Shown one piece after another: positions 1-64,000 of a stretch of 64,000 nt of DNA. The position numbers were made by a program, and so were the translations under genes. Each line of letters opens with the position of its first letter. Within the stretch, counting starts at the first letter, position 1. The notes below the pieces were generated by a model that was not told where the DNA came from, made no database searches, and saw nothing but the letters and a program-made list of their open reading frames with translations. Source of the DNA: Methanothermococcus sp. Ax23 (lineage in GTDB: Archaea; AGJL01; Methanococci; Methanococcales; Methanococcaceae); the NCBI RefSeq assembly GCF_049075655.1, contig NZ_CP157522.1, positions 1,024,001 to 1,088,000 on the forward strand. The letters are read 5' to 3'.

Positions 1-44
1 ATTATAACACTTATCGTAATTATAACAACTCTAAAGGTGATGTC

Positions 45-1214
45 GTGAAAAAAATATTAACATTGATCTTAGGGCTGTGTCTAATAGTCCCTATAGTATC
101 TATGGCAGGATGCATAGGGGGAGCTCAGTCATCAACTACAACAGCCACTACTCAAGAAAAACCTTCAACAACTACCACTAATGAAAAACCATCTACCATA
201 ATACTTAGAACTACAGGGGCAACATTTCCAAAATATCAAATCCAAAAATGGATTAATGATTATCAAGAAACTCATCCAAATGTTAAGATTGAGTATGAAG
301 GTGGAGGAAGCGGACACGGACAAGAGGCATTTTTAAAAGGATTAACTGACATTGGAAGAACTGACCCTCCTGTTAAAGAAAGCATGTGGAATAAATTTTT
401 AGAAACAGGAGATCAACCATTGCAATTCCCAGAAATTGTTGGGGCAGTTGTTATAACCTATAACATCCCAGAAATTGGAGATAAGACTTTAAAATTAAGT
501 AGAGGTGTTTTGGCAGATATATTCTTAGGTAAGATTGAATATTGGGATGATGATAAAATCAAAAAGATAAATCCTGATGTTGCTGATAAATTACCACACA
601 AGAAGATTATCGTTGTTCATAGAAGCGATGCAAGTGGAACAACTGCTATATTCACAACATACTTAAGTTTAATTGGCAAGGAATGGGCAGATAAGGTTGG
701 AGCTGGAAAGATTGTAGATTGGCCAGTCGATAAAATGGGCAGAGGTGTTGCTGGAAAAGGTAATTCAGGCGTTGTAGCTACATTAAAATCAACACCGTAT
801 TCAATTGCATACACTGAATTATCTTACGCAATCGAAGAAAAACTTCCAGTAGCGGCACTGGAAAACAAAAATGGTAAATTTGTTAAGCCAACAGATGATG
901 CAATAAAAGCAGCGGTTTCAGCCGTTAAAGCAAATATTCCAAATCCAACAGAAGGTTACAAAGAAGATTTAAAACAAATGTTGGATGCTTCCGGAGACAA
1001 CGCTTATTCAATAGTTGCATTTACTCACATATTAGTTTGGGAAAACAAAAATGGTAAGCACTACTCTTCACAAAAAGCTAAAGCTATAAAAGATTTCTTA
1101 ACATGGGCATTAACTGAGGGACAGAAATCATCACACTTAGCTCCCGGTTATGTAGGATTACCTGAAGATGTTGCTAAGATTGGATTAGATTCTGTAAATA
1201 TGATCAAAGAATAA
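45..1214 (+). CDS. pstS: Phosphate ABC transporter substrate-binding lipoprotein
   Basis: Lipobox-like MAGC, GATFP, GGGSG.G, HRSDASGTT and GKGNSGV motifs; followed by pstCAB-phoU. Confidence 0.97.
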   Translation: MKKILTLILGLCLIVPIVSMAGCIGGAQSSTTTATTQEKPSTTTTNEKPSTIILRTTGATFPKYQIQKWINDYQETHPNVKIEYEGGGSGHGQEAFLKGLTDIGRTDPPVKESMWNKFLETGDQPLQFPEIVGAVVITYNIPEIGDKTLKLSRGVLADIFLGKIEYWDDDKIKKINPDVADKLPHKKIIVVHRSDASGTTAIFTTYLSLIGKEWADKVGAGKIVDWPVDKMGRGVAGKGNSGVVATLKSTPYSIAYTELSYAIEEKLPVAALENKNGKFVKPTDDAIKAAVSAVKANIPNPTEGYKEDLKQMLDASGDNAYSIVAFTHILVWENKNGKHYSSQKAKAIKDFLTWALTEGQKSSHLAPGYVGLPEDVAKIGLDSVNMIKE

Positions 1215-1369
1215 ATATTTATTTTTTTATTTTTATTTTAAGATTAAAGATTTCTGCTTATTAATTTTAAGGGGTTGCCAAATAATTAAATGTTATTGTA
1301 TGAAATATAATATTCACACCAGTAAACCTTAATATTCTATATTTGTAGTATAAAAATTTTACATTGTCA

Positions 1370-1407
1370 TTATCGCTTGGAATGATATTTATAGCTTGGA
1401 ATGATAT
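1370..1407. repeat. 19-bp tandem direct repeat (2 copies, TTAT[C/A]GCTTGGAATGATAT) in the pstS-pstC intergenic region
   Basis: Units 1370-1388 and 1389-1407 differ by 1 nt. Confidence 0.8.
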
Positions 1408-1540
1408 ATATAATCGACTGCAAAGAATTCGATTTTTCGGCAACCTCCCAATTTAAGTAAGGTATAAATACTACTTACACCTATTTGATCTAAAATTAAT
1501 TCACAATTGATGCAATAAAATACCGACCTGGGTAGAAACT

Positions 1541-2479
1541 ATGGATTTGAGAAAGATTCTAAAAAAGATAGATAAATTTAAAATAATAACCTTACCAGCC
1601 ATATTTATTGTGTTTATATTATTTATTTTAATATTGGGCTTTTATTTCTTTAATGCACTCCCGGCTATTGAGAAATATGGTATTAATTTATTTATAACAA
1701 ATGTTTGGCATGCCGCAGAAGAAGTATCGAATGAAGTCTATGGATTATCGGCACCAATTTGGGGGAGCATATACACAGCAACAATTGCTGTTTTGATAGC
1801 TTTGCCTTTATCTATATGCTATGCAATATTTGTCAATGACTATGCCCCTAAAAAACTAAAATATCCTTTAATTATAATTTCAGACATTATGGCAGGACTT
1901 CCAACGATAATTTATGGGATATGGGGAGCTTTTATATTGGTTCCTCTGTTGAGAGACCACATTATGAAGTTTTTATACGAATACTTTTCATTCATTCCTC
2001 TCTTTGATTATCCGCCATTATCTGGTTATTGTTATTTGTCAGCAGGTATCTTATTAGGGATAATGGTTACGCCATTTGCAGCGGCTATTATTAGAGAAGC
2101 TTATGCAATGATTCCCTCTGTTTATAAAGAGGGTTTAGTTGCATTAGGTGCAACAAAATATGAAGCAACAAAGGTTTTAATAAAATATATAAGACCAGCC
2201 ATAATTTCTGGGACCATATTAGCTTTTGGTAGGGCTTTAGGGGAGACAGTTGCTGTTTCACTGGTTATAGGAAACTCCTTCAACCTAACTTACAAGCTCT
2301 TTGCTCCCGGATATACAATCTCATCATTAATAGCAAATCAGTTTGGAAATGCAGTTTTGTATGAATACATGACTTCAGTTCTTTACTCTGCTGGTTTGGT
2401 GCTATTTGTTATAGGATTGATCGTTAATTTCATTGGAATTTATTATTTGAAGAGGTGGAGAGAGCATGTCTCCCATTAA
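1541..2479 (+). CDS. pstC: Phosphate ABC transporter permease PstC
   Basis: Hydrophobic; LPTIIYG.WG, EAA-like loop ALGATKYE, GRALGET. Confidence 0.96.
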   Translation: MDLRKILKKIDKFKIITLPAIFIVFILFILILGFYFFNALPAIEKYGINLFITNVWHAAEEVSNEVYGLSAPIWGSIYTATIAVLIALPLSICYAIFVNDYAPKKLKYPLIIISDIMAGLPTIIYGIWGAFILVPLLRDHIMKFLYEYFSFIPLFDYPPLSGYCYLSAGILLGIMVTPFAAAIIREAYAMIPSVYKEGLVALGATKYEATKVLIKYIRPAIISGTILAFGRALGETVAVSLVIGNSFNLTYKLFAPGYTISSLIANQFGNAVLYEYMTSVLYSAGLVLFVIGLIVNFIGIYYLKRWREHVSH

Positions 2480-3311
2480 ATATAAAACTATTAGAATGGT
2501 CAAAGATAAGATATTCCTGTTTATTGTTGGAGCATTAACATTATTGGCAATACTCCCTTTATTCCATATTATTATTTCAATTGTTGAGAAGGGACTGCCA
2601 ATAATAATGGAGCGGGGATTAACTTTCATAACTGGGACGTTGAGCGAGGGAGGTATAGGTCCAGCAATAGTGGGGACGCTGATGCTAACATTCTTGGCAA
2701 ATTTGATAGGCTTACCTTTGGCTTTCTTAGCTGGAGCTTATGCCTATGAATTCCCAAATAGCCTTATTGGAAGAACCACAAAAATGCTATTACAGATAAT
2801 GTTGGAATTTCCAACTATACTGGTCGGTACGTTTGTTATGGGAGTCTTGGTAGTTCCAATGGGAACTTTTTCAGCGTTAGCTGGGGCTTTGGCTTTGGCT
2901 TTAATATTAACTCCTTATGTTGCTGTATATACAGAAGAAGCTATGGCAGAAGTTCCAAAAATTTATAAAGAAGGAGGTTATGCCTTAGGATGCACAAGGG
3001 CACAGGTTATATTTAAAGTCGTCACAAAGATGGCTAAAAAAGGAATCTTGACAGGAATTTTAATAGGCATGGCTAAAGTTGCAGGGGAAACAGCCCCTCT
3101 GCTATTTACTGCGGGTGGACTTTATGAGGTTTATCCAACAAACCCATTAGAGCCTGTTGGAGCAATCCCCCTCCTTATCTATACATTAGTTCAAAGCCCT
3201 TCGATAGAAGATCATCAGATGGCATGGGGGGCTGCCTTAGTCATGCTCATAATATTTTTGGCGATATTTGTTCCAATAAGATATGCGTTAAAAGATGACA
3301 TAAAGCTATAA
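2466..3311 (+). CDS. pstA: Phosphate ABC transporter permease PstA
   Basis: GGIGPAIVGT, AKVAGETAPLLFT; overlaps pstC end. Confidence 0.96.
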   Translation: MSPIKYKTIRMVKDKIFLFIVGALTLLAILPLFHIIISIVEKGLPIIMERGLTFITGTLSEGGIGPAIVGTLMLTFLANLIGLPLAFLAGAYAYEFPNSLIGRTTKMLLQIMLEFPTILVGTFVMGVLVVPMGTFSALAGALALALILTPYVAVYTEEAMAEVPKIYKEGGYALGCTRAQVIFKVVTKMAKKGILTGILIGMAKVAGETAPLLFTAGGLYEVYPTNPLEPVGAIPLLIYTLVQSPSIEDHQMAWGAALVMLIIFLAIFVPIRYALKDDIKL

Positions 3312-3332
3312 AACTCTAAAAAAGTGATAGGG

Positions 3333-4091
3333 ATGGCAAATATAAAGATGGAAACAAAAAACTTAAATTTATGGTATGGAGAGAAACAGGCGTTATTTGA
3401 CATAAACTTCCCAATCTATGAGAATAAAATCACCGCTTTAATAGGACCGAGTGGATGTGGTAAATCAACATTTTTAAGATGCTTAAATAGGCTAAATGAT
3501 TTAATTCCTAATGTTAAAATAGAGGGAGAGGTTTTATTGGATGGAAAAAATATCTATGATAAAGATGTCGATGTTTATGAGTTGAGAAAGAGATTAGGGA
3601 TGGCATTTCAAAAACCAAATCCTTTTGCCATGAGTATTTATGATAATATTGCATTTGGTCCAAGAATTCATGGAATTAGAGATAAAAAAGAATTAGATAA
3701 GATAGTTGAATGGGCTTTAAAAAAAGCTGCATTATGGAATGAGGTTAAGGATGAGCTGCATAAAAATGCCCTATCATTATCAGGAGGGCAGCAGCAAAGG
3801 TTGTGCATCGCAAGAGCTATAGCAGTTAAGCCAGATGTTTTATTAATGGATGAACCAACCTCTGCGTTAGACCCCATCTCTACATTAAAGATAGAGGAGT
3901 TGATGGTTGAGTTAGCTAAGGATTATACTATTGTTGTTGTCACTCACAACATGCAGCAAGCAAGTAGGATTTCAGACTACACAGGATTCTTTTTAATGGG
4001 GGAACTTGTGGAATTTGATAAAACAGAAAAGATATTCCTTGAACCATCTAAAAAGGAAACTGAGGACTATATAAGCGGCAGATTTGGATAA
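3333..4091 (+). CDS. pstB: Phosphate ABC transporter ATP-binding protein
   Basis: Walker [36 protein letters not shown]-terminal YISGRFG; ATG 3333 chosen over upstream GTG. Confidence 0.97.
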
Positions 4092-4119
4092 TTATAATTA
4101 TATTATTTATGGTGGTATT

Positions 4120-4794
4120 ATGGCAAGAGAATTATTATATTCTAAAATTGAAGAAGTAGAAAATGATGTTGTAGATATGGGAAATATGTGTATTGATTCA
4201 TTGAAAAAAGCAGTAGATGCATTTTTAAATTATGATAAAAAACTTGCAAAAGAAATAAGGGAAAATGACAATTTAATCGACTTGAAAGAGATGGAAATCG
4301 AAGAAAAATGTGTTTCCATCATAGCACTTCAACAGCCCGTAGCGTCAGATTTAAGGACGATATTGACAGTTATTAAAATCATATCAAAACTGGAAAAAAT
4401 AGGGGACAATGCTTCAAAAATTGCAAAGATAGTTTTAAAATCTGAATTAAATATGAAAAGGGAAAACGAAATAATTAATGTTATGCTCGAATATCTTGAA
4501 AAAATGTTAAAGGATGCATTGACAGCATTTAGGACTGGAAATGAGGAGCTCGCCAGGGATGTTTATAGTAGGGATAAAAAAATAGATAAACTCTATGAAC
4601 AATTATACCGGGAAATGATTAGTTATATAATTGAAAATCCAAAAAACACCACAATGGCAACAGAAACAATATTCGTGGCAAAGTATTTAGAAAGAAGTGG
4701 GAACTTAGTAGCTTCAATTGGGGATAGGGTAGTTTATATGATAACAGGAGAAAGAATAAAAGAAGAAGAATTTGACTATAAACATTTTAAATAA
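4120..4794 (+). CDS. phoU: Phosphate signalling protein PhoU
   Basis: [17 protein letters not shown] and LERSG repeats; RBS GGTGG before ATG 4120. Confidence 0.95.
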
Positions 4795-4808
4795 AAATAA
4801 TACAATAA

Positions 4809-6491: not shown

Positions 6492-6515
6492 GTCATTGTA
6501 GTATTTTAATAATAT

Positions 6516-7076
6516 TTAATCATTTCGCTCATCAATATCGTCATTGACAACTATTTTAACCGGTAAGAACGGTATCTTAATTTCTTTCTTTTTAATTTTT
6601 TTATCGAGCATTATTACTTCGTTTAATTTATTTTGGAGTCCTTTTGATAATTTTTTTACGAGCTCAGATGGAGACACCGCTGAGTAAATATAAGGTTTTT
6701 TACCCAACCCCTCTTTATCCAACTTTTCTCTGACTACAATTCCGCTTTTATACATTTCTAAAATTACCTCCCTAATAGTGGAAGGATATATTCCAGTTCC
6801 ATGGGCTATTTCATCCACTGTGCTTTTTCCATATTTTCTGAGGTAAATATATATCTTAGCCTTTACCTCACTTGATAAAAGGTTTGCTAAATTATCTATT
6901 AATGATTTGTCTATGTTTTCAATGGTTTTTTTGATTACAATTGATTTATTTTTTTCCTTGTTTTTGACCTTTTCTAAAATTTCTTTTACCTCATCTTCCA
7001 TATTTTTTTCTTCATTTTCTGGATTTTTCATATTTAAGTTATTTTCATTTGTATTAATTTCATTTTTATCGCACAT
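6516..7076 (-). CDS. Winged-HTH transcriptional regulator (TrmB/ArsR-like)
   Basis: KIYIYLRKYGKSTVDEIAHGTGIYPSTIRE...G.GKKPYIY winged-helix pattern. Confidence 0.85.
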   Translation of the reverse strand: MCDKNEINTNENNLNMKNPENEEKNMEDEVKEILEKVKNKEKNKSIVIKKTIENIDKSLIDNLANLLSSEVKAKIYIYLRKYGKSTVDEIAHGTGIYPSTIREVILEMYKSGIVVREKLDKEGLGKKPYIYSAVSPSELVKKLSKGLQNKLNEVIMLDKKIKKKEIKIPFLPVKIVVNDDIDERND

Positions 7077-12329: not shown

Positions 12330-12633
12330 CTAATGTCGGCGGGAAGTTTGATAAATTCCTTCGGAATTTATAAATGTCTTCGCTATCGCTCAGACATCCC
12401 CTTCCGTAAGGAGGGGATGAGGCCGACGAAAAATATAAATATTATGACATAATAAAATAAACGCATAAATGGGCGAAAACCAAGTCCATTCTATGCTATT
12501 TTCATGCACCTGCGGAAGGCGGGGGTGAGCCTGTGGAGAAGTGAGCCCCTACCTAGGTAGTTAATAACTACCGATGATGGCAAGCTCGTTCAGTGAAGCA
12601 GGAAGCCCCTTCCGTAAGGAAGGGTTACTTCAC
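12330..12633 (+). mobile_element. Non-autonomous IS200/IS605 derivative (family A, copy 1): left end, promoter-like region, omegaRNA-like scaffold and right end; no ORF
   Basis: Begins after TTTAT with CTAATGTCGGCGGGAAG; subterminal hairpins CCCCTTCCGTAAGGA(A)GGG; ends TTCAC; near-identical to 47337-47639. Confidence 0.88.
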
Positions 12634-13979
12634 CTTATTAGTCCCCATATTTTCGAATTTATAGCACCATAAACATCTTCTGCAAAGTTAATAAATCCAT
12701 CAAATCCAACATAAACAGTATCAGGAGCTCTACCATTTATGTATGGAATACCCATTTTATGAACCAATTCCTTAGTTTTACTATCGGATATAAACACATC
12801 TGGCTTACATTCCATCAGTGCCTTTTCCAATTCATAGGTATTTGGATTATCTATTATTATAGCACCTTTTGGAAGTTTTTTTACAATTTCTTCATAGTTT
12901 TCCTTATTTGCAAAGTATGTGGCAACACCCACCACTTCCATTCCGAGCTCATCCATTATTGGACCCATATAGTTGAGAGCTCTCTGAGCTCCGTGGCATA
13001 TAAATACCTTTTTGCCCTTTAATTCCTTTTTGTAAAAATTCAATTTTTCCTCGTTCTTTTTTAGATAGAAGTCAATTGTTTCGTTTATTTTTTCTTTATC
13101 AACATTTAGTATTTTTCCAATAGTTTCCAAAGCTTCACAGCAGTTCTTTATGCCGAAGAAGTTTGAAACAATGTATGGAACTTCATATACATTTCTCATC
13201 ATTTTGGCAAATTGTATGGAGCTCTTCATGCAATGGACAATATTTAATTTTGCATTATCCATAATTCTTATTTTATCGATTGTGGCATTTCCTGTAAATG
13301 AACATAAAACTCTTATTCCCATTTTGTTCAGCATATCTTCTATTACATTGGAACTTTTTACGCTGAAATCTCCTATTATATTCACATCATAGGGAGTAGG
13401 ATTTTTTAATTCCTTCGTAGCTATCAATTCGAAGAGCTTTTTATTTGCTATCATATGTCCCTTATTTTGAGTTTTTCCTTTAAATCCTGCACATTCAAAG
13501 GCGAGAACTGGTATATTTAATTTTGATTTTTTCAGCTCTTCATTGGCCTTTTTTACCACGGCATTTATATCATCTCCAATCAATGCAGGAAGGCAGGTTT
13601 CATAAACAAATATGGCATCTGGTTTAAATTCAGTGGCAACTTTAATTATGGCATCGTATAATTTTTTTTCACCGCCAAATATTACATTTTCTTCCTTCAT
13701 ATCTGTTGTAAAGCAATATGAATATGTGGAAGGTCTGTAATCCCATGAGTAATATGCACAACCGACATGGGAGTGAATAATATGGACCACATTTTTAATA
13801 TGGCTGTTAATGATAATCCTTGAACCGTGGAATGTGCATGACCTCTCTGAAAAGTCCCCCGGCTGCGTAGGTTCTTCACATGCAGGCACTATATTGTCAT
13901 TGCACTTAACGATACAATGGCCTATCCTGTCCTTTCTTCCTCCAATTTGATTCAATATTTCTGTGTCCATATTATTCAC
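12630..13979 (-). CDS. nifE: Nitrogenase FeMo-co scaffold subunit NifE
   Basis: ERSCTFHG, HSHVGCAYY, FTTDMKE..VIFGGEKKL, TCLPALIGDD, VHCMKS; stop codon supplied by the adjacent element. Confidence 0.93.
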   Translation of the reverse strand: MNNMDTEILNQIGGRKDRIGHCIVKCNDNIVPACEEPTQPGDFSERSCTFHGSRIIINSHIKNVVHIIHSHVGCAYYSWDYRPSTYSYCFTTDMKEENVIFGGEKKLYDAIIKVATEFKPDAIFVYETCLPALIGDDINAVVKKANEELKKSKLNIPVLAFECAGFKGKTQNKGHMIANKKLFELIATKELKNPTPYDVNIIGDFSVKSSNVIEDMLNKMGIRVLCSFTGNATIDKIRIMDNAKLNIVHCMKSSIQFAKMMRNVYEVPYIVSNFFGIKNCCEALETIGKILNVDKEKINETIDFYLKKNEEKLNFYKKELKGKKVFICHGAQRALNYMGPIMDELGMEVVGVATYFANKENYEEIVKKLPKGAIIIDNPNTYELEKALMECKPDVFISDSKTKELVHKMGIPYINGRAPDTVYVGFDGFINFAEDVYGAINSKIWGLIR

Positions 13980-33692: not shown

Positions 33693-34163
33693 ATGGCTAC
33701 AACCTATGAATTAAAAATATACGGTAAAATTCAGCATGTGGGATTTAGGGATAGAATAGAGGATATCGGAAGAGGTTTGGGAATTGATGGGGTAGTTTAT
33801 AATTATAAAGATGGAACAGTCAGAATTTTGGCAAATTTTGATGATGAAGAATTAAAAGAATTTTTTAAAAGAAGTATAAAGTTTTTAGAGAAAAAAGACA
33901 ATTTAATTAAAATAGAAGGGATTGAGGAGAAAGAACTAAATACATTTATTGAATTTCCAAGTGGGATAAACAGGATTTCAGCGGATGATTTACTAGAACT
34001 TAATAAAAAACTTGATGAAGGAGTTAAATATATTAAAATGATTTTTGGAGTTTTGGAAGAAGTTAAAAAGGGACAGGATGAATTACTAAAAGGACAGAAT
34101 GAAATAAAAGAAATACAATTAAAAATGTTAAATATATTGGAAAAAATTGAAAGAAAACTTTAA
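33693..34163 (+). CDS. Acylphosphatase-domain protein with C-terminal coiled coil
   Basis: GKIQHVGFR and N..DGTV motifs; heptad-like tail. Confidence 0.8.
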
Positions 34164-34262
34164 GATTTTTATATTATCGGAAGCCAGTAAGTTGGAAGAA
34201 AAGATTTTAGATGTCCTTTTTAATTAAATAAATGATATTTTTTTATAATTTTAGGGGGGATT

Positions 34263-36481: not shown

Positions 36482-36565
36482 TAATTATAGAATTTTTATT
36501 CATTTTAACAAAATCAATATATATGTATCATGACAAAAATATAATAAAAATTAGGTGGTGAGCTC

Positions 36566-36826
36566 ATGGCAACAAATCCTTCAAAACTAAGAATCAGCCC
36601 AACATTAGATAACATCATATTAGTTGAGAATGTTTTAAAAGAAGATTCAATAATTACAATTGATGAACTATCTAAAAAAACAAACATTCAGATGCCTATA
36701 TTAAAAGAAATTCTTGATTATTTAGAGCAATCCAATAAAATTGTAATATCAAAAAAAGGCATTTCTTGGATATACAATAACAATGAAAAACTACAAAAGG
36801 TAATTACAGAAGGGTTTGAACTATGA
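36566..36826 (+). CDS. Small winged-HTH protein, putative antitoxin
   Basis: SPTLD...TIDELSKKT...ILDYLEQSNKI; overlaps the next gene by 4 nt. Confidence 0.65.
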   Translation: MATNPSKLRISPTLDNIILVENVLKEDSIITIDELSKKTNIQMPILKEILDYLEQSNKIVISKKGISWIYNNNEKLQKVITEGFEL

Positions 36827-37167
36827 AAAAAATTAGGGTAATTTTATCCCCTGATGCATTTGAAGTTTATAATTATCTAAAAAACAATTGCAACAACAAA
36901 CAAAATGCTTCTTTATATAATGCTATAAATGATAAAGTCGAAATTCTTAAAAATAATGTTCATTATGGGGATGCAATAGGTAAAAAACTGATTCCAAAAG
37001 AATATATTGCCAATTATGGAATTTCTAATTTATTTAGAGTCGAATTACCGCAGTTTTGGAGAATGCTCTATACAATTACCAACGATGGAATAAATATTGT
37101 CGTGGTTATTTTGGATATTTTAGACCATAGGAAATATAATAAAAAATTTGGTTATAAAAATAGATAG
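36823..37167 (+). CDS. Putative RelE/ParE-superfamily toxin
   Basis: Basic 114 aa; LFRVELPQFWRMLYTI..ILDILDHRKY pattern; coupled to the upstream small gene. Confidence 0.65.
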   Translation: MKKIRVILSPDAFEVYNYLKNNCNNKQNASLYNAINDKVEILKNNVHYGDAIGKKLIPKEYIANYGISNLFRVELPQFWRMLYTITNDGINIVVVILDILDHRKYNKKFGYKNR

Positions 37168-37324: not shown

Positions 37325-40030
37325 ATGGAAATAAACCATGATTATAATGTTGAGTTGTTTGAAAAAAAAGGATTCATGAGAAAAAAATGTAAAGAATGCG
37401 GACAGTATTTTTGGACATTAGACCCTGAGAGAGAAACCTGCGGAGACAGCCCATGCGATAAATACTCATTTATCGGAGCTCCGATTACAGATAAAAAATA
37501 CACATACACCGAGATGGTGAAGGAATTTTTAAACTTCTTTGAGGAAAATGAGCACACACCAATAAAAAGGTATCCAGTAACTGCGAGAAGATGGAGAAAC
37601 GATATTCTTTTAACAATTGCATCTATTGCAGTATTTCAGCCGTGGGTAACAAAGGGAGTTGTAGAACCAATTGCAAATCCTCTTGTAATAGCTCAGCCAT
37701 GTATTAGATTAAACGATATAGACAATGTTGGAAGAACGGGAAGGCATTTAACATGCTTTACAATGGGAGGACACCACGCATTCAATAAAGTAGATGATTT
37801 TAAATATTGGACAGATAGAACTGTCGAATTATGCTTCAACTTCATGAAAAAGCTCGGCATAGATGAAAAATCCATTACATTCATAGAAAGCTGGTGGGAA
37901 GGTGGAGGAAACGCTGGACCTTGCTATGAGGTAATAACTCATGGTGTAGAGCTCGCCACACTTGTGTTTATGCAGTATGAAAAAGTCGGAGATGAATATA
38001 GAGAAATGCCTTTAAAAATCATAGATACTGGCTACGGTATAGAGAGGTTTGTTTGGGCATCACAGGGAACACCAACTGTTTATGATGCAATATTTGGAAA
38101 TATCGTTGAAAAATTGAAGGAAAATGTAGGCATTGACTATATTGAAAATATTGATGATAGAATACTTGCAGAAAGTGCCACACTTGCTGGGCTTATGGAT
38201 ATTGAAAATGTTGGAGATTTAAGAGTTTTAAGGCAGAAGGTTGCTGAAAAGCTGAAAATGGATGTGGAAGAGCTGGATAAACTACTTACGCCACTAGAAA
38301 ATATATATGCCATAGCAGACCATACAAGATGCCTTGCATTTATGTTTGGGGACGGTATCGTTCCATCAAATGTAAAGGACGGATATTTGGCACGATTACT
38401 TGTAAGAAAAACATTGAGATACATGAAAAATGTTGGAATTACAATGTCTTTAAAGGACATTATAAATTTACAGCTTGAAGAGTTAAAGGAATTATATCCA
38501 GAATTACTTGAAATGAAAGATTATATAATGGATGTAATTGACGAGGAAGAGAGAAAATACATTCAAACAATTAACAAAGGAAGGGGAATTGTCGAAAGGC
38601 TGGCTAAGTCCAAAGATGAAATATCACTTGATGATTTGATAGAGCTCTACGATAGTAAAGGGCTTCCACCAGAGGTTGTTGAGGAAATTGTAAAGGAAAT
38701 AAATGAGAAAAATAAAACCAAAAAAACCATAAAACTAAATATTCCTGATAATTTCTATACAATAGTTGCCGAAAGACACGAGCAGAAGAAGATGGAAGAA
38801 AGTGAAGAAACAGAAGAAAATCAGAAAAAAGCACTTCCAGAAGTGAATGACATTCCAAAAACCGAGTTATTATTCTATAAAAATCCAAAACAGAAAGAAT
38901 TTGAAGCTAAAATCTTAAAAATAGTTGATGATTATGTAATTCTTGACAAAACCATATTCTATCCAGAAGGTGGTGGTCAAAAATACGATATTGGAGTTAT
39001 CAACGGCAAACAAGTTGTTGAGGTTCAGAAGAAAGACGATATCGTATATCACAAGCTCTCAGATGTAGAAGGTCTTAATGAAGGGGATATTGTAAAAGGA
39101 ACAATAAATTGGGAACAGAGAATCAATTTAATGAGAAACCACACAGCTACACACATAATAAATGCCGCAGCTCAGAAGGTTTTAGGAAAACATGTTTGGC
39201 AGACAGGTTCAAATGTTGAACCAGATAAGGCAAGGTTGGATATTACGCACTACAAGAGAATAACCAGGAATGAAATAAAGGAAATAGAAAAAATTGCAAA
39301 TGAGATTGTTTTAGAAAACATTCCTGTAAAGAGTTCCTTCATGGATAGGAACGAGGCAGAGCAGAAATATGGATTTAGAATATATCAAGGTGGAGTTGTT
39401 CCAGGGAATGTGCTAAGGATAATAAATATAGAAGGTGTAGATGTTGAGGCGTGTGGTGGAACGCACTGTGAAAATACTTCGGAAGTTGGATATATAAAGA
39501 TATTAAGAACTGAAAGAATCCAAGATGGTGTTGAAAGGCTCGAATACACAAGCGGAATAAACTCAGTTAAAGAAGTAAGTGCAATGGAGGATATTTTACT
39601 AAACTCTTCGGAGATATTGGGAGTTCCAGCTGAAAATCTTCCAAAAACTGTTAAAAGATTCTTTGAAGAATGGAAGGAGCAGAAGAAAACAATTGAAGAG
39701 CTCCAAAAGAAAATGGGAGAATACAAAAAGTATGAGCTCGCAAATAAATTTGAAAAAGTTGGAAGCTACGATGTTTTAGTTGAAATGGTTGAAGGAAATC
39801 CAAAGGAATTAATGTCAATTGCAGATAATTTGGTAAAAGAAGGTTCAATTGTGGTTCTATTAAATAACAACGGATATATTTTGTGTAAAAGAGGAGATGG
39901 TGTTGAGCTCAGCATGGGAGAGCTACTGAGGAAAATAGCAAAAGGTGGAGGAAAGGACAACTTAGCACAGGGTAAGTGTTTAGATGATATTAAAACTCTC
40001 AGAAATAAAGTATTTGAAGAATTGAAATAA
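37325..40030 (+). CDS. alaS: Alanine-tRNA ligase
   Basis: [25 protein letters not shown], editing HTATH..CGGTH, GGGK. Confidence 0.98.
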
Positions 40031-40103: not shown

Positions 40104-40973
40104 ATGTTTATACCAGGTCATATTACCGGTTTTTTTAAGATATATAAGGATAAAAATATATTAAAAACAGGCTCAACCGGAGCAGGTATTACGCTAAATA
40201 AAGGAGTATATACTGATGTAATTGACGGAAAATCAGATGAATTCCTTCGGAATTCATTACTCGAAATCAGAGATTTCGATGGAGAAATATATTTTAATGG
40301 CGATAAGATAGAATTATGCTCAACAATTGAAGTGGTTAAAAACTATCTGAATTACAACGAATCGGATGAATTTAATTACAATATCATCCATAAATCAGAT
40401 TTTCCATTGGGCTGTGGATTGGGCACATCAGGTTCCTGTGCATTGGGTGCATCATATGAGCTCAGCAAAATTTACAACATAAACAAAGTTTTGGAATTTG
40501 CACATACTGCTGAGGTAAAATGCGGAACTGGACTTGGAGACGTGGTGGCACAATATACAAGAGGTTTTGTAATAAGGAAAAAACCCGGGCTCCCCATAGA
40601 TGTGAAAAAAATAAATATAGATGATATTAATAACTATTATGTAGTTGTTGAAATACTTGGAAAAAAAGAAACTGGCACGATTATCAACAATCCTGAATGG
40701 ATAGATAAAATAAATAAAATGTCTGATGAGCTCCTACAAAAACTATTAAAAAGTCCTACATTGGAAAACTTCATGAGTTTGTCCTATAAATTTGCAAAAG
40801 ATACAGGTCTTGCAAGTGATGAAATAATCGAACTATGCGATGATTTGAGTTTTACCATTGGGAGCTCACAGGCGATGCTTGGAAATACCGTATTTTGTAT
40901 ATGTGAAGATAAAGATTTAAATGATGTATTGTCTATATTAAATAAACCTATTGTATGTAAAATTTATCAATGA
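40104..40973 (+). CDS. Archaeal pantoate kinase (GHMP family) with a 16-aa insertion
   Basis: [44 protein letters not shown]. Confidence 0.92.
40232..40279 (-). repeat. Double-hairpin micro-element inserted in-frame in pantoate kinase
   Basis: Minus strand TCGAAATCTCTGATTTCGAGTAATGAATTCCGAAGGAATTCATCTGAT follows the family consensus; 48 bp. Confidence 0.8.
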
Positions 40974-40981
40974 GGGAAATC

Positions 40982-43033
40982 ATGAGTGAAAAATACTTAT
41001 TAACAACAGCTTTGGCATATACAAATGGACCACTTCATTTAGGACATGCGAGAAGCACATATATTCCTGCTGACATTATGAAAAAATACCTGAAATTAAA
41101 AGGTAAGGATGTAATCCATGTTGGTGGAACAGACAACCACGGAGTTCCTATCACACTTACAGCAGAAAAAGAGGGCGTAAAACCTGAGGATATTGTAAAT
41201 AAATATCACAATGAGATAAAGAGAGATTTAGACAATTTAAATGTAGAGTTTGACAGCTACGGAAAAACTCACAGCGATATCCATATAGAAACTGCTCAGG
41301 AGTTTTACAAAAAACTTAAAGAAAATGGATACATTTATGAAAAAGACATAGAGCAGTTTTACTGCCCGAAATGTGATAGATTTTTGGCAGATAGGTATGT
41401 TGAAGGAACATGTCCGTTCTGTGGCGGTGAGGCAAGAGGAGACCACTGCGAAGTTTGTGGAAGACATCTTGAACCAACCGAGCTCATAAATCCATACTGT
41501 ATAAACTGCAACACTACGCCTGAGCTCAGAAAAACAACACATAGGTTCTTTAAATTAAGTGCATTATCCGACGATTTAAGAAATTATGTTGAGAGCTCAG
41601 ACATGCCTGAGCATGTTAAGAATATGGCATACAGCTGGATAAAGGAGCTCCATGACTGGGATATTTCAAGGGATATAAAATGGGGTGTTCCAATACCTGA
41701 CAGCGAAAACCAAGTAATGTATGTATGGTTGGAAGCACCAATTGGTTATATTTCATTTACAAAGCAGTTGGGAGATGTTTGGAAGGATTATTGGTTAAAG
41801 AAAGATAAAAACGAAAATGATAGCGATGTAAAAATATGGCATTTTATTGGAAAGGACATTACAGTTCATCACTCAGTATTTTGGCCAGGCATGTTAATTG
41901 CTAATGGTGAATATAACCTTCCTTCGTCAGTGATAAGCGGCGGTTATTTAACACTTGAAGGAAGAAAGATGAGCACAAGTAAAAAATGGGTTGTTTGGGT
42001 AGATGATTTTGTTAAATACTTTGATTCCGATTATTTGAGATATTTCTTAATGGTAAATGCACCGTTAAATAGGGACTGTGATTTTTCATTTGATGAATTC
42101 CAAAAGAGAATAAACACAGAGTTAATTGCTATCATTGGAAACTTCACACATAGAGCTCTTGTATTTTCACACAGGAAATTTAAGGCTATTCCTGTTGTTG
42201 ATGAAGATAGCTTAAAAGAAGAAGATAAAGAACTGATAAACAAATGTAAAGAAACTGTTGAAAAAGTAGATAAACACATAATGGAATTTAACTTTAAGGA
42301 TGCTATAATGGATATTATTCACCTTGCAAAAGAGGGGAATAATTACTTCCAGAAGATGGAGCCTTGGACTGTTGAGGATGAAAACAGGTTGAAAGAAATA
42401 TTATACACCTGTGCAGTGGTTGTAAAATATATAGTTTATTTGCTTTATCCATTTATGCCAAATAAAACCATGAAACTTCTTGATTTAATGAATGAAGAAC
42501 TTGATTTGGAAATTAGGGGAAATACTTTGAAAAAGCCGAAGGTTGTATTTACAAAAATTGAAGATGACCAAATCAAGATGGTTAAAGGAAAACTATTAAA
42601 ATCAGAAGAAGCTAAGGAAAAGAAGAAAAATAAAAACAAAAAAGATAAAAAAGAAAAAAACAATAAAGACGAAAATAAAAACAACAAAGAAAATGAAAAA
42701 GGTGATTCTATGGATTTAATAAGCATTGATGACTTTGCTAAAATTGAGTTGAGAGTTGCACAGATTTTAGAAGCTGAGGAGGTTCCTAAATCCAAAAAAT
42801 TGTTGAAATTAATTGTAGATATTGGGGATGAAAAGAGACAGGTCGTTGCAGGTATAAAGGGACACTATGAACCATCGGAGCTCGTAGGTAAAAAAATTGT
42901 ATTATTATGCAACTTAAAACCTGCTAAATTATGCGGTGTAGAATCACAAGGTATGGTTTTAGCCGCAGGGGATGAGGTTGTAGCTCTTTTAACACCAGAT
43001 AAGGATGTTCCAGTAGGAAGCAAAATCTGCTAA
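40982..43033 (+). CDS. metG: Methionine-tRNA ligase with C-terminal tRNA-binding domain
   Basis: HLGH, zinc-knuckle CxxC motifs, KMSTS, C-terminal Trbp111-like domain. Confidence 0.98.
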
Positions 43034-49145: not shown

Positions 49146-50074
49146 TAGTGTGGGTCATATTACACTCTAACCTCTAATACCTTCATATAAGGATAACCTC
49201 TGGTAATGAGATTATATAGTGCTAAAACCTGTGCAGAAACTACTGCACAGAGACAGAATACTTTTTTACGAATATAACCTTTGATATTAATCCAAAACTT
49301 ATTCATAAATCGGTTCTTTAATATTGAATTGGTGTGCTCTATTTTAACTCTTATCTTAGAAACTTCCGAAGGAAGTTTCTTTTTATTTTTCCTACCCAAT
49401 CTCCGTGGATTATGTGCTGTTATTAGTTCATTTTTGTATAATTCTATCGCTTTTTTTTAAATCTTTTGAATCATAGCCTGCATCTGCACAGGACTTTTTG
49501 GTAGGTACTAATAATTTATCAGCTACTTTACAATCGTGAGTATTTGCTGTGGTAAATTCTGCTCTTAATGGTATTCCTAACTTATCTACTGCTAAATGTA
49601 ATTTAAAGCCTTTAAACATTCCTACACTGTTATATCCTATCTTTCCCTCAATATCTGTTTCGTCTTTTATTGGAGTGCTATCGTATATTGACCATTCAGG
49701 ATTATTTAGTTCAATATATTTATCACCTAATAAAGTAATTATTGCATGCAATTCTTCATCTAGGGATTTTTTCCATCTATCGATGGTTCTTCTACCAGGG
49801 CAGGATTTAAATCCTAATGCAGTTAAAATCTGTGGATTATTTTGTAAGTGTAATACTAACGCTCTATTTGAATGTATGCCTTTTAAAAAGGCATACACTA
49901 ATAGTTTAAGCCTCAACTCTAAATTATATCCTTTTCTCCCTACCTTTCTTCGTTTAGGGATTCGGTCAATTAAATCTGATGTAATTATCTCATTTACCAC
50001 TTCCTCAGCCTTCATATTATCGTCTTTTTTATAATATTATATTTAGTATAGGTTATATATTTTGACCCATACTA
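49146..50074 (-). mobile_element. DDE insertion sequence (IS5/IS4-like superfamily), 929 bp
   Basis: TIRs TAGTGTGGGTCA / TAGTATGGGTCA; 14-bp direct repeat TTTATCTTTTATTT at 49132-49145 and 50075-50088. Confidence 0.88.
49160..50015 (-). pseudogene. DDE transposase split at an A8 run
   Basis: YDSTP, GFKLH, ADAGYD, R.KIEH motifs; dropping one A at 49451-49458 joins the two ORFs. Confidence 0.85.
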
Positions 50075-50480: not shown

Positions 50481-51742
50481 TTAGCAGGGTCTAACCCTAC
50501 ATGGGTTGCCAAGCCCACTACCCCTATCTCCGTTTAGGAGATTCAGGGCTACCTTATGCGATACTTTTTTTAAAATATTCAAAGCCCCGTTAATGTCTGC
50601 ATTCAAAACCATGCCACACTCACTACACACATACAAACCCCTATACTTCCTATTACTCTTTTTAACTACACCACAATTACTGCAAGTTTGAGAAGTATAA
50701 GCTTCATTAACCTGTTCTACTGTTAATCCCTTTTCCTCTGCCTTATATGTTATCATACTTACTAACCTACCAAAAGGTATTCTATGCAATTGCTGATTAA
50801 CCCTATCTCCAATGTCAATACTTGAAATGCCTTTGTTTAACTCGCCGATTACAATCCTTGAAACTTTGTTATCCACTGCAAAATCGATAATCATTTTACT
50901 TATTTTATGTAGATAATCCTTAGTATAATTCTTTTCCCTTACTGTTAAGCGGGATAATCGTTTATTATATTTTAACTCTTGCTTTGTTAGGGTAGATTGG
51001 ATTTTTCCTTTACTTTTAGCAAACCATCGGAATTTAGAAATTAACCTTCTTCCATCGTAGATTACTGCACTGCCCGTATTGGTTACTACTGTTGCTAAAT
51101 TCTTAATTCCTAAATCAATACTTAGTATATTACCTTCTTTGATAGGTTCTTGAATTACTGGTTTCTTATGGATTAAGTGAAGTATGTAGTAGGTTATCCC
51201 ATAGATGGTCTGCGGAACTATCTCAACTTCTTTAACCTGCATGGTATCAAGCGGTAGAGTTTTCGATAAATCTACCCATAAGTACTTGGACTTGATACCA
51301 TGCTTCTCTTTGAGATAGTTTTTAGTTTGTTTAGATAATGATAACCTTAACTTATTGCCTATGATTTTGAAACCTTGCTTCTTCCATTTTACGGGAAAGT
51401 GTCCATCTTTTGGTTGGTATCGTGGTCTTTTAGTGTGCTGTTTGAAGTAGTTTTGCCATGCAATCGCTTGCGTAGCAAGCGAGCAACGAAAACCGAAGGT
51501 TTTCGTCTAATTTGAAGTTTTTGACATACTGCCTGTGCTGACTGTGAGTGCAGGTTTTTAAACCAGAAGTTGTTCTTCATTTGAACATCTATTTTATTTG
51601 GTTTAATATTTCGCTGTATTACTTCGTAGTTGGATGTATTCCAGAGTTTTGATGCTGAATAGGTTAAATGGTTTATGATTGTTAATTGTTCATTATTTAA
51701 ACTTCTGGTTAGGTTTATTGTCAGCACTCTGGTTACTTGCAT
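50481..51742 (-). pseudogene. tnpB: RNA-guided endonuclease TnpB (~404 aa) frameshifted by a 47-bp insertion
   Basis: RuvC motifs IDLG, IGEL and NADING; Zn finger CSNC..CSEC; removing 51465-51511 restores ...KLQIAWQNYFK... Confidence 0.93.
51465..51511 (+). repeat. Double-hairpin micro-element inserted in tnpB
   Basis: CGCTTGCGTAGCAAGCGAGCAACGAAAACCGAAGGTTTTCGTCTAAT. Confidence 0.9.
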
Positions 51743-57861: not shown

Positions 57862-57920
57862 TTTATCACCTTATTAAAATTAGATTTGATTTATGAGGTG
57901 TATTTTTATGGAGCATGGCA

Positions 57921-62326: not shown

Positions 62327-62442
62327 TCGCATTATTTCTTAATTATTTGACGAAATTCGAAGGGTCAAATATTTATGAAATATACTACATATATATTTGT
62401 ATAATTTGTTTAATACATTTAGCAACAAAAGTAAGGGGTAGT

Positions 62443-62799: not shown

Positions 62800-62900
62800 C
62801 ACCAATATGGGATATTTCAAGAAGGACATAAGAGAATCTCCATAAATAATGAAAATAAAAAAATAAAAAAATAATATTAAAAATAAAAATAAAAATAAAA

Positions 62901-63050
62901 AATCGATGATACTATCCGCTAAAAATCTCTTTGAGATTTTTAGACTAGTATCATCTAAAAAAAGAGAAATCGGTGATACTATCAGATGAATTTCACAGAA
63001 TGAAATTCATTACTAGTATCATCTAAAAAAAGAGAAATCGGTGATACTAT
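62901..63050 (+). repeat. Mini array: two exact 39-bp direct repeats plus a partial one, separated by different palindromic spacers
   Basis: ACTAGTATCATCTAAAAAAAGAGAAATCGGTGATACTAT at 62944-62982 and 63012-63050. Confidence 0.9.
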
Positions 63051-63204
63051 GGCAAAATATCAATGTATGTGTGGATGGATATATGATGAAAATGTTGGAG
63101 AGCCTTCTCAAAATATAGCACCAAATACCAAGTTTGAAGATTTGCCAGATACATTTAAATGCCCTCAGTGTGGTTTGGGAAAAAACGCATTCAAAAAAAT
63201 TTAA
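63049..63204 (+). CDS. Rubredoxin (51 aa, below the ORF-track cutoff)
   Basis: Manual translation MAKYQCMCGWIYDENVGEPSQNIAPNTKFEDLPDTFKCPQCGLGKNAFKKI; RBS GGTGA. Confidence 0.95.
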   Translation: MAKYQCMCGWIYDENVGEPSQNIAPNTKFEDLPDTFKCPQCGLGKNAFKKI

Positions 63205-63236
63205 TCCTTTAATATTTTTATAAAAGAGGTGGAAAT

Positions 63237-63494
63237 ATGTTAATTGAAGTAATCACTTCCCCACAATGCCCTCACTGTCCTGCTGCTAAAAGAGTAGTTG
63301 AAGAAGTTGTAAAAAAGGTAAGCTGTGATGACATTGAAGTAAAATATATCGATGCAACAGAAGACCCTGGAACTGTGGAAAAATACAGCATAATGGCAGT
63401 TCCAGCTATCGTCGTAGATGGGGAGGTAGCATTTGTAGGAGCTCCTTCAAGTGAGCAACTTGAAAACTACCTGAGAGAAAAATTGAATAGGTGA
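63237..63494 (+). CDS. Thioredoxin/glutaredoxin-like protein (MJ0307 type)
   Basis: CPHC active site, MAVP cis-Pro, FVGAP. Confidence 0.94.
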   Translation: MLIEVITSPQCPHCPAAKRVVEEVVKKVSCDDIEVKYIDATEDPGTVEKYSIMAVPAIVVDGEVAFVGAPSSEQLENYLREKLNR

Positions 63495-63503
63495 ATTATA
63501 TCC

Positions 63504-64000
63504 ATGATTAAGGACAAAATGCTAAAAGCTTTAAACGAACAGATAAATAAAGAGCTCTTTTCGGCATATCTCTACTTATCCATGTCTGCTTATGCCGAAT
63601 CCATAGGATTAAAAGGATTTGCTCAGTGGCTCAAAGTTCAATATCAAGAGGAGCTCGACCACGCCATGAAATTCTATACTTATGTGATAGAACGGGGAGG
63701 AAAAGTAGAATTGGAGTCCATCGATAAGCCAAAAAATGAATGGTCATCAATATTAGAAGTTTTTGAAGACGGATACGAGCATGAGCAGTTTATATCAGAA
63801 TCCATCAATAATCTAATGGATTTAGCAGTTTCTGAAAAGGATTATGCTACAATGAATATGCTTCAATGGTTCATAAATGAGCAGGTTGAGGAGGAATCTT
63901 CATTCTTGGAAATTGTGGATAAATTAAAGCTATTGGATGGAGACAAAAGAGGCTTATTCATGCTCGACAAAGATTTGGGTCAAAGAACCTATGTTCCATT
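63504..64000 (+). CDS. Ferritin (3'-truncated by the window edge)
   Basis: Manual translation MIKDKMLKALNEQINKELFSAYLYLSM...QEELDHAMKF...HEQ...LQWFINEQVEEE. Confidence 0.93.
   Translation, partial: MIKDKMLKALNEQINKELFSAYLYLSMSAYAESIGLKGFAQWLKVQYQEELDHAMKFYTYVIERGGKVELESIDKPKNEWSSILEVFEDGYEHEQFISESINNLMDLAVSEKDYATMNMLQWFINEQVEEESSFLEIVDKLKLLDGDKRGLFMLDKDLGQRTYVP

Follow-up and report, generated by a model that had tools for sequence, protein, structure and literature searches.

A HIP1- and uptake-sequence-like hyper-abundant word, GAGCTC, in a methanogenic archaeon

Hyper-abundant exact words are rare in genomes, and the only ones so far understood, to our knowledge, are the uptake signals of two bacterial families. 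The function of HIP1, the highly iterated palindrome (HIP) GCGATCGC of cyanobacteria, has been argued over for thirty years, and a preprint of 2024 reportedly found that HIP1 improves transformation. The subject of this paper is a word of the same general kind in an archaeon, the hexamer GAGCTC, as found in a stretch of 64,000 nucleotides from the chromosome of Methanothermococcus sp. Ax23 (genome G000; G000:C1:1024001-1088000), the whole of which is called the window here. A reading of the window from its letters alone (the sequence-only reading) had proposed that GAGCTC behaves like HIP1 or an uptake sequence, and the description holds: the word is an exact palindrome, 13-20-fold over-represented, present in all frames and in non-coding DNA, conserved in close relatives, confined to particular lineages, and extended into a dialect in one of them. 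That a HIP-like or uptake-sequence-like word exists in an archaeon, and that the effect is very strong, is clear from the counts given below.

Several explanations have been offered for such words. Elhai (2015) tied HIPs to methyltransferases and proposed a ratchet dependent on MutS/MutL; that text contains neither 'archaea' nor 'GAGCTC'. Xu, Lawrence and Durand (2018) described HIP1 as 15-300-fold enriched, conserved and periodic at 10-90 kb, and suggested a role in the nucleoid. Rodriguez-Cruz et al. (2026) reported that HIP1 abundance correlates with pilus and competence genes, and not significantly with methyltransferases, and proposed that the word is an uptake watermark. Among the bacterial uptake words, the uptake signal sequence (USS) consists of a 9 bp core and two helically phased T-tracts (Mell et al. 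2012), and both the USS and the DNA uptake sequence (DUS) inflate particular peptides, are absent from genes without homologues and leave residue conservation unimpaired (Findlay and Redfield 2009). In archaea, a related methanogen, itself poor in the motif, depends for transformation on type IV-like pili, an OB-fold membrane protein and a TctA-like transporter (Fonseca et al. 2023); the phrase 'uptake sequence' appears nowhere in that paper. A search of the literature found no report of GAGCTC, or of its 8-nt extension GGAGCTCC, as an archaeal genomic feature (for GGAGCTCC, among the matches listed).

The window holds 94 GAGCTC sites, one per 681 bp and spread across its whole length, where 100 dinucleotide-preserving shuffles gave a mean of 4.59 (sd 2.17, largest 10) and none of the 100 reached 94. 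The earlier tally by eye, 85-95 sites against about 4 expected, was right in both figures, and the coordinates quoted with it fall within one base of real sites (12945/12977/12986, 21073/21094, 41522/41593/41645), with the exception of 41500, where there is no site and the real start is 41480. Genome-wide, on a chromosome of 1,662,948 bp at 31.9% G+C and a second contig, C2, of 7,732 bp (4 sites), there are 2,089 copies, against about 125 expected from base composition, 106 from a first-order Markov model (Markov-1) and 160 from a second-order one (Markov-2). GAGCTC is the most over-represented hexamer of the genome, the next-ranked words overlap it, and among the 64 palindromic hexamers the second-best has an observed/expected ratio (O/E) of only 1.8. 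The remaining 15 words of the form NAGCTN occur 126-325 times each. A maximal-order Markov model gives a ratio of 1.6, but this is an unfair null, because the pentamers GAGCT and AGCTC sit mostly within GAGCTC itself. The flanks are weakly informative, with less than 0.25 bit per position outside the hexamer (G at -1 and C at +1 in 38%), and the sites are therefore not copies of a dispersed repeat element. Like the HIPs, then, GAGCTC is an exact palindromic word that is many-fold over-represented throughout a genome.

Many other palindromic hexamers of this genome are 10-50-fold under-represented against Markov-1, among them TGATCA (13 observed, 683 expected), AGATCT (11, 459), GGATCC (11, 270), CTTAAG (20, 483), GTTAAC (22, 342) and CTGCAG (18, 130). 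The depletion indicates that the genome which accumulates GAGCTC is at the same time under strong restriction pressure of varied kinds.

Could so common a word be a by-product of codon, dipeptide or codon-pair usage? Just above half of the chromosomal sites (1,074 of 2,085) are Glu-Leu codon pairs, as such an origin would have it. Open reading frames (ORFs) were called crudely (longest ORFs of at least 80 aa, chosen greedily; 1,583 ORFs making up 84% of the chromosome), and 1,907 sites lie inside them and 178 outside. The coding sites occupy all three frames, with 1,074 as GAG-CTC, 614 as xGA-GCT-Cxx and 220 as xxG-AGC-TCx. After synonymous codons are shuffled within genes, the O/E in these frames is 13.5, 7.3 and 9.3; after codon order is shuffled it is 17.9, 15.9 and 13.7 (30 shuffles each). 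GAG-CTC writes 1,074 of the 3,871 Glu-Leu dipeptides, where codon usage predicts 65.5. Outside ORFs (260 kb at 26% G+C) the 178 sites compare with 6.0 expected by Markov-1 or 15.7 by Markov-2, and GAGCTC is the top hexamer there too. Moreover, the motif-poor congener G005 encodes the same proteins with 14 sites. The codon shuffles and the non-coding enrichment refute a by-product of coding, and with the uninformative flanks counting against a dispersed repeat as well, we give this whole class of explanation next to no credence. The claim that the word occurs, as HIP1 does, in several frames and between genes is borne out, and the three sites cited for the latter (29852, 33592, 61925) are all outside called ORFs; neither of the two outcomes named in advance as fatal to the idea, an O/E near 1 after codon control or enrichment in a single frame, was observed.

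The bias acts on the complete word. Synonymous one-step neighbours of GAGCTC are depleted at each of the six positions, as in GAA-CTC (O/E 0.29) and GAG-CTT (0.32), and in the other two frames the choice of codon is nearly fixed: GCT is used in 614 of 619 instances of xGA-GCN-Cxx, and AGC in 220 of 234 of xxG-AGY-TCx. Relative to background codon use, the natural logarithm of the odds ratio is 3.2-5.8 in G000 and 1.6-4.6 in three relatives that were analysed from 400 kb each (G012, G010 and G013). Since all six positions are biased, the process responsible is not one that repairs a single base. Read as a balance of mutation and fixation, the figures would mean that the complete word has a population-scaled advantage of about 3-4.

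Five of 41 genomes compared are rich in GAGCTC: G000 (2,089 copies), G012 (2,070), G010 (1,645), G013 (1,515) and G003 (1,321). The other 36 have 4-490 copies, the maximum being in the out-group G040, where a control word has 340, and four congeners are depleted (G007 with 4, G008 with 9, G005 with 14, G002 with 16). The complete genome G005 avoids even the tetramer AGCT (O/E 0.14 in 400 kb; 535 copies in 1.5 Mb), which is the mark of AGCT-specific restriction pressure. Opposite G000 sites it has GAACTT (35% vs a background of 12%) and GAACTC (15% vs 5%), and no alternative hyper-abundant word was found in it. In a quick IQ-TREE phylogeny of alanyl-tRNA synthetase (26 rows; the fragments from G001, G007 and G011 left out), G013 clusters with the poor genomes G014 and G016 (99 in the Shimodaira-Hasegawa-like approximate likelihood ratio test, SH-aLRT), and the genus codes likewise place it outside the genus of G000. 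G010 and the G000/G003/G012 group belong to one clade (SH-aLRT 99) with the poor genomes G002, G004, G005, G006, G008 and G009. A single clade of the five rich genomes, a group defined from the counts before the tree was made, is rejected by the approximately unbiased test (19 rows, seven more distant genomes also dropped; difference in log-likelihood 76, p = 7.5e-7). If this one-gene tree holds, the rich trait arose on two or three occasions or was lost on two or more.

Turnover of individual sites was followed in orthologues, defined as reciprocal best hits over at least 70% of the length (295 pairs with G012, 278 with G010, 307 with G013 and 248 with G005), sites in alignment gaps being skipped. 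G012 retains 287 of 366 G000 sites (78%), G010 95 of 391 and G013 89 of 378 (24% each), and G005 a single one of 332. Against G012, retention of GAGCTC is 0.76-0.83, where the median hexamer reaches 0.40, giving ranks of 6/990, 1/998 and 5/969; for the distant rich genomes, G010 and G013, the figure is 0.17-0.34, which in frames 0 and 2 does not exceed that of the median hexamer. Among close relatives, as with HIPs, the sites are conserved beyond background. GAGCTC sites are lost about a quarter as fast as those of a typical hexamer (-ln 0.78 vs -ln 0.40), which agrees with a bias that is now active in both lineages, G000 and G012. At conserved Glu-Leu pairs the word is found in G012, G010 and G013 in 88%, 34% and 33% of cases if G000 has it, and in 5%, 10% and 12% if G000 does not, from which it follows that most sites of the distant rich genomes are independent.

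One lineage has its own version of the word. In G010, 1,259 of the 1,645 sites (77%) are GGAGCTCC, compared with 13-16% elsewhere (333/2,089 in G000, 184/1,321 in G003, 335/2,070 in G012 and 191/1,515 in G013), and G stands at -1 in 83% (1.68 bits) vs 30-38% in the other rich genomes. The longer word is denser in the non-ORF DNA of G010 than in its ORFs, and by Markov-2 it is 130-fold over-represented in G010. G000 sites that happen to carry both flanks, G before and C after, are shared with G010 in 33 of 59 cases, vs 62 of 325 for the remainder. GGAGCTCC is a lineage-specific 8-mer dialect of GAGCTC, in the manner of the dialects known for USS and DUS.

The word also leaves a mark on proteins and is unevenly shared among classes of genes. 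Glu-Leu has an O/E of 1.21, 1.26, 1.25 and 1.10 in four rich genomes and 0.91 in G005, the single poor comparator, and Ser-Ser one of 1.16-1.33 vs 1.05. Conservation of the protein towards G005 is no lower at Glu-Leu pairs written GAG-CTC (97/182) than at those in other codons (214/418). ORFs of G000 without a G005 homologue carry 0.98 sites per kb, those shared with it 1.46. Inflated peptides, scarcity in homologue-less genes (both seen with one poor comparator) and unimpaired conservation are the same three behaviours that were described for the uptake words by Findlay and Redfield (2009). Mobile DNA is emptier still: the 41 multi-copy ORFs of G000 (transposases, TnpB and similar; 24.4 kb) have no site where 33 would be expected, the independent sequence among them being less than 24 kb because the copies are near-identical. 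One-step neighbours of GAGCTC are about 15-fold rarer in these ORFs than in others, and the ORFs avoid AGCT (O/E 0.24), GATC (0), CTAG (0.18) and GTAC (0.20) as well. Within the window, both the DDE transposase and the TnpB gene are empty and the pst genes have their one site at position 121, in pstS, with none in pstC, pstA or pstB, just as had been noticed by eye.

The spread of sites along the chromosome is close to random. Mean spacing is 797 bp with a coefficient of variation of 1.09, counts per 100 kb follow a Poisson distribution (mean 125.8, variance 127.3), and gaps above 3 kb are in slight excess only (3.0% vs 2.3% under an exponential). There is no mutual repulsion within 100-300 bp and a slight one within 1 kb on either side (2.50 vs 2.70 neighbours, about 7%; p = 0.0008). 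At roughly one copy per kb, with a Poisson spread, GAGCTC has the abundance that is typical of USS and DUS.

Taken together, these properties lead us to favour, tentatively, a reading of GAGCTC as a word for the recognition of self DNA, akin to USS, DUS and HIP1, which would be kept by an ongoing fixation bias for the whole motif acting through uptake or recombination. GAGCTC would be the core of the recognition site of a lineage-specific factor, extended to GGAGCTCC in one lineage. Cells would preferentially take up or recombine DNA that bears the word, as is known for USS and DUS and has now been proposed for HIP1, so that alleles gaining it spread and alleles losing it get replaced; a strong and still-active bias for the complete hexamer over every near-miss, equal in coding and non-coding DNA, would uphold some 2,000 copies per genome. 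A protein presumably reads the word on bent or wrapped DNA, and uptake or recombination may be what converts that recognition into a fixation bias. The fuller version of the proposal, to which we lean a little less, is that this would be the first archaeal uptake or self-recognition word, a palindrome with the dialects GAGCTC and GGAGCTCC whose reading would involve about 150 bp of DNA in a bent or wrapped state, perhaps bound by histones, and which would be spread by uptake or recombination without methylation.

The appeal to bent or wrapped DNA derives from the flanks. Around G000 sites G+C oscillates with a period of 10.5-10.8 bp for about 70-80 bp on each side, or about 150 bp in total; smoothed over 3 bp, the maxima lie about 11, 23, 33, 43, 52 and 65 bp from the edge of the site, and A/T-rich minima fall at multiples of about 10.5 bp from its centre. 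The amplitude is 0.012, compared with a mean of 0.0020 and a maximum of 0.0044 at random coding positions. The rhythm is alike in size and phase in each frame (0.0115 in frame 0, 0.0146 in frame 1, 0.012-0.020 in frame 2) and is weak around Glu-Leu pairs in other codons (0.0038), so the 3.6-residue repeat of protein helices is not its cause. Of the 287 hexamers that occur at least 1,500 times, none has a larger amplitude than GAGCTC (the median is 0.0027 and the 95th percentile 0.0050), and six rarer, noisier words among 1,154 tested exceed it. The rhythm holds in the 1,523 sites without another site within 110 bp, is borne by AA, TT and AT in antiphase to G and C, and fades out by 70-80 bp. 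It is found in G012 (0.0155) and G010 (0.0104) too, and at the 8-mer sites of G010 it reaches 0.0114, barely over the 95th percentile of the null (0.0099). Orthologous positions without a site lack it (0.0029 in 1,456 pooled flanks vs 0.0133 in G000), and positions with a site in both genomes have it in both, an association in which either site or rhythm could be the cause of the other. Such a rhythm is the classical sign that some 150 bp of DNA are bent or wrapped around a protein. It is a new feature, and it fits an uptake or recombination signal and a chromatin-protein site alike.

There is accordingly a rival in which a nucleoid or chromatin protein that wraps DNA would bind or nucleate at the sites, and direct selection for the way the chromosome is organised would keep each of them; candidates for the protein are a sequence-specific factor that acts together with archaeal histones and a multimer of histone-like type. 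The flank rhythm, with its amplitude, its indifference to reading frame, its first place among abundant hexamers, its survival when neighbouring sites are removed and its restriction to genomes that have the site, speaks for this rival, and selection with a nucleoid role has been argued for HIP1 by Xu et al. (2018). Three histone-fold genes are present in each of four rich genomes examined (G000, G012, G010 and G013), one in G005. The third of these encodes a protein of 99 aa with a C-terminal helical extension (G000 C1:184386-184685), detected in 12 of 20 genomes tested: all five rich ones and the poor G007, G014, G015, G016, G017, G023 and G026. It was not found in G005, G001, G002, G004, G006, G008, G009 or G011. 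With the extended histone present in 7 of 15 poor genomes tested, it was rejected as the driver and is at most permissive for the motif. GyrA (PF00521) has no match in any of the order's 40 genomes, the out-group G040 being the one genome with a match. On the histone and gyrase results, then, the motif is not tracked by any wrapping protein. Nor is there long-range order: a periodogram of G000, simpler than the test of Xu et al. (2018), showed no periodicity between 4 and 200 kb (top peak 14,784, below the null 95th percentile of 20,514), and spacing is near exponential apart from the 7% repulsion already mentioned. A heavy load would also fall on selection, which would have to sustain an ln(odds) of 3-4 at every one of some 2,000 sites. 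We know of no nucleoid protein with an exact word enriched 20-130-fold through coding DNA. On balance a chromatin site is unlikely, though it is the strongest of the rivals to a self-DNA word.

A second rival, and the first mechanism that the sequence-only reading had in mind, is a mutational drive linked to methylation. A GAGCTC methyltransferase together with strand-directed or very-short-patch repair would turn near-misses into sites, after the ratchet that Elhai proposed for HIPs or the Dcm/Vsr effect on CCWGG. In favour of such a drive, the ratchet of Elhai (2015) could level off near one site per kb, which is as dense as the sites are here; no rich genome is without a DNA methyltransferase of one family or another; and the avoidance of AGCT by congeners (O/E 0.14 in G005) implies that enzymes reading this core circulate in the group. 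The gene content gives no support. C5 methyltransferases (PF00145) are missing from G000 and G003 and sub-threshold in G010 and G012, with real matches in G013; the N6_N4 family (PF01555) has only a marginal match in G012; N6 enzymes (PF02384) show only weak, housekeeping-like matches in G010; and D12 (PF02086) is strong, among the rich genomes, only in G012 and G003. None of these four families has a member common to all five rich genomes, non-orthologous enzymes of the same specificity being possible. The co-occurrence with a cognate methyltransferase that is seen with HIPs does not extend across the five. Vsr is found in none of the five, and MutS_V and NucS each in none of the 15 genomes of the family of G000 that were searched, both being present in some sister-family genomes. 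RE_SacI gave nothing in 23 genomes, where control genomes were equally silent, so that result is uninformative. A drive of this type also fails to predict the flank rhythm, and the bias falls on all six positions, transversions included. It seems to us improbable.

Restriction-modification genes were considered in their own right. G000 has pairs that resemble such systems, one a PF01555 methyltransferase beside a 245-aa ORF without a Pfam family, another an Eco57I-type enzyme; as drivers they were set aside, their likely orthologues being in G003 only. A wider screen started from the 336 of 1,583 G000 ORFs without a G005 homologue, G005 being an imperfect negative in which the purge of AGCT could mask a driver that is still carried. 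Ten of the G005-absent candidates, inspected by eye, are surface, metabolic, membrane or transposon proteins, and among them is one small winged-helix protein encoded in the window. The last (window 6516-7076, minus strand) is a protein of 186 aa with a winged-helix-like segment recognised by eye, no G005 homologue, and 86% identity to a G010 protein.

A further rival supposes a Chi-like signal in a genome kept in many copies. The word would stop or tame the resection of broken ends and so gain an advantage in gene conversion: a broken copy that bears it would be preserved, and a word-free copy resected and recopied from a word-bearing sister, which would also mark the DNA as self. Polyploidy and gene conversion are features of this order. 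Whole-word recognition, presence in all classes of DNA, uniform density, absence from mobile DNA and the dialect would all be expected, and the flank rhythm would not. The Chi sites that are known are asymmetric, have a fixed orientation relative to replication and show far weaker enrichment, and we know of no archaeal Chi. A Chi-like origin strikes us as no better than a long shot.

Returning to a self-DNA word spread by uptake or recombination, DNA does appear to move between these lineages. A cluster of seven ORFs around a NifH-like ATPase (G000 C1:1516644-1521521) is 92% identical between G000 and G010 or G013, and the same block of 4.5-5 kb is 97.5% identical between G010 and G013, against about 75% for the genomes as a whole. 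Nine sites in the block are identical in G010 and G013, and seven of these are shared with G000. Only one of the nine is the 8-mer in G010; the block is therefore in the 6-mer dialect and has the look of a recent import. As a correlate of the motif the cluster was discarded, because it occurs in the poor genome G017 (88%) and is absent from the rich G012, as it is from G005. Natural transformation occurs in this family (Fonseca et al. 2023), and candidates for its TctA-like and OB-fold module are present as well: a TctA-like gene with, upstream, a gene for a protein with a transmembrane segment, an OB-fold and a Cys-rich region is found in G000, G010, G013 and G012, and the TctA-like gene is intact in G000, G010, G013 and G005.

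A number of observations weigh against an uptake or recombination word. In G012, a rich genome, the TctA-like gene is broken into two ORFs (G012:C1:516935-518076), and if the split is real a genome with the full bias would be deficient in uptake. The OB-fold protein, tried as an uptake 'receptor', was rejected in that role because its distribution follows phylogeny; 25 of 29 genomes have it, both rich and poor ones. No uptake receptor was identified in the rich genomes, and no gene was found whose presence matches the five of them. Transformation, moreover, was demonstrated in a genus poor in the motif (Fonseca et al. 2023). Site density is independent of gene conservation (Spearman rho 0.02), unlike that of USS, and the USS and DUS are asymmetric words of 9-12 nt, where GAGCTC and GGAGCTCC are palindromes of 6-8 nt. 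Parts of the flank evidence are awkward too. The rhythm spans 6-7 helical turns on both sides, far beyond the two T-tracts of the USS, and so looks more like wrapping on a chromatin protein; in G013 its period looks longer, about 12 bp (0.0149); and at the 178 non-ORF sites its amplitude of 0.0125 is within the null range and its phase different. Set in order of probability, the self-DNA word stands first and the chromatin site second, with the repair or methylation drive and the Chi-like signal level behind them; a share of the probability is assigned to none of the four. Of the three mechanisms that the sequence-only reading had listed, an uptake or recombination signal and a chromatin-protein site survive, and the methylation-linked drive does not find backing in the genes.

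The sites and other features of the window are collected in Table 1. The pst block that lacks sites is not an island, since its genes are 79-83% identical to their G005 orthologues. The first ORF of the low-G+C block (33693-34163) has a near-copy at C1:126022-126387 and homologues in G012, G010 and G013. On contig C2, a 570-aa ORF at the start of the record and a 668-aa ORF at its end share an identical overlap of about 28 residues and look like a single gene spanning the ends of a circular record.

Table 1. GAGCTC sites and associated features of the 64,000-nt window (window coordinates)
Feature	Position	Strand	Remarks
GAGCTC starts, 1-22 kb	121, 4546, 5280, 5330, 5364, 6660, 7831, 7853, 8056, 8203, 10838, 11716, 12725, 12945, 12977, 12986, 13219, 15133, 15255, 17229, 17339, 18937, 19906, 20344, 20405, 21073, 21094, 21399, 21421, 21542, 21950		
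GAGCTC starts, 22-41 kb	22662, 23166, 23881, 24069, 24512, 26285, 26586, 26786, 29138, 29223, 29852, 29989, 30451, 31709, 32387, 32711, 33035, 33402, 33461, 33592, 34630, 36560, 37476, 37949, 38642, 39698, 39734, 39905, 40458, 40728, 40862		
GAGCTC starts, 41-64 kb	41480, 41522, 41593, 41645, 42153, 42878, 44085, 44497, 44588, 44854, 45041, 45791, 45963, 46713, 47891, 48460, 48657, 48708, 48883, 53896, 54681, 55048, 56220, 56248, 57772, 58912, 61747, 61925, 62219, 63439, 63552, 63651		
Three-site cluster (12945, 12977, 12986)	12945-12991		within ORF 12630-13970 (-), 5 sites in that ORF
Four-site cluster (41480, 41522, 41593, 41645)	41480-41650		within ORF 40970-43033 (+), 6 sites in that ORF
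Sites outside called ORFs (nine)	21950, 29852, 33592, 34630, 36560, 45791, 47891, 61747, 61925		
pstS	102-1211		one GAGCTC, at 121
pstC-pstA-pstB, conserved core block	1541-4088	+	no GAGCTC
phoU	4120-4791		one GAGCTC, at 4546
Low-G+C block (0.19-0.27), five ORFs without G005 homologues	33693-37167	+	no site within ORFs; 34630 and 36560 in spacers
Alanyl-tRNA synthetase gene	37325-40030	+	tRNA-synt_2c, E 1.2e-145; 6 sites; tree marker
DDE transposase	49431-50015	-	DDE_Tnp_1; no GAGCTC
TnpB	50484-51242	-	OrfB_IS605 and Cas12f1-like_TNB; no GAGCTC

What makes the archaeal word useful is the contrast that it offers. The rich genomes share neither a methyltransferase nor a known mismatch repair system, which removes the leading repair-based explanation for words of this kind. 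Close relatives are rich, neutral or AGCT-avoiding and supply the material for a comparative search for the responsible gene, and the 6-mer and 8-mer dialects are the basis for a clean comparison of cross-preference. The nucleosome-sized flank rhythm is a new handle and predicts a protein footprint. If uptake should be the cause, GAGCTC would provide the first evidence of self DNA being distinguished in archaeal transformation.

How does GAGCTC compare with the words and motifs that are already known? Some are similar in part only. The Dcm/Vsr system of E. coli likewise makes its site, CCWGG, more frequent, there by biased repair at a methyltransferase site; it acts on one position only and produces small enrichments, and it needs a C5 methyltransferase and Vsr, of which the former is absent from G000 and G003 and the latter from all five rich genomes, and the bias for GAGCTC is at all six positions. 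Chi, too, is a short over-represented word, and it identifies self DNA to the recombination machinery. It is only modestly enriched and is read by RecBCD or AddAB, and it is asymmetric and strand-oriented, whereas a palindrome cannot be oriented. The extended binding motif of DNA gyrase has flanks periodic at about 10.5 bp, and this motif and nucleosome positioning sequences resemble GAGCTC in having a centre flanked by G+C of that period over about 130-150 bp, the signature of wrapped DNA; unlike what a gyrase motif would require, GyrA has no match in the 40 genomes of the order, and histones occur in rich and poor genomes alike.

The closest parallels are the two with which we began. HIP1 and the alternate HIPs of cyanobacteria are exact hyper-abundant palindromes, genic and intergenic and conserved among relatives, missing in some lineages and replaced by variant words in others, and their function is debated, all of which can be said of GAGCTC. 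The degree of enrichment is similar, 15-300-fold for HIP1 (Xu et al. 2018) against 13-20-fold for GAGCTC and 130-fold, by Markov-2, for GGAGCTCC in G010. Unlike HIP1, GAGCTC belongs to an archaeal host and is a word of 6 nt (8 nt in one lineage); HIP1 has the methyltransferases DmtA and DmtC, where the rich archaeal genomes share no cognate enzyme; and the 10-90 kb periodicity of HIP1 has no counterpart in GAGCTC between 5 and 200 kb. GAGCTC also has a helical flank rhythm of about 150 bp. The USS of Pasteurellaceae and the DUS of Neisseriaceae, for their part, share with GAGCTC a density of about one copy per kb, dialects, a fixation bias for the whole word, inflation of peptides without loss of conservation, and scarcity in homologue-less genes and mobile DNA, and the USS shares helically phased A/T flanks. 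These words are bacterial and are read by pilin-type receptors; GAGCTC is archaeal, the phasing of its flanks extends for 6-7 turns to either side, and its density does not depend on the conservation of the gene in which it lies.

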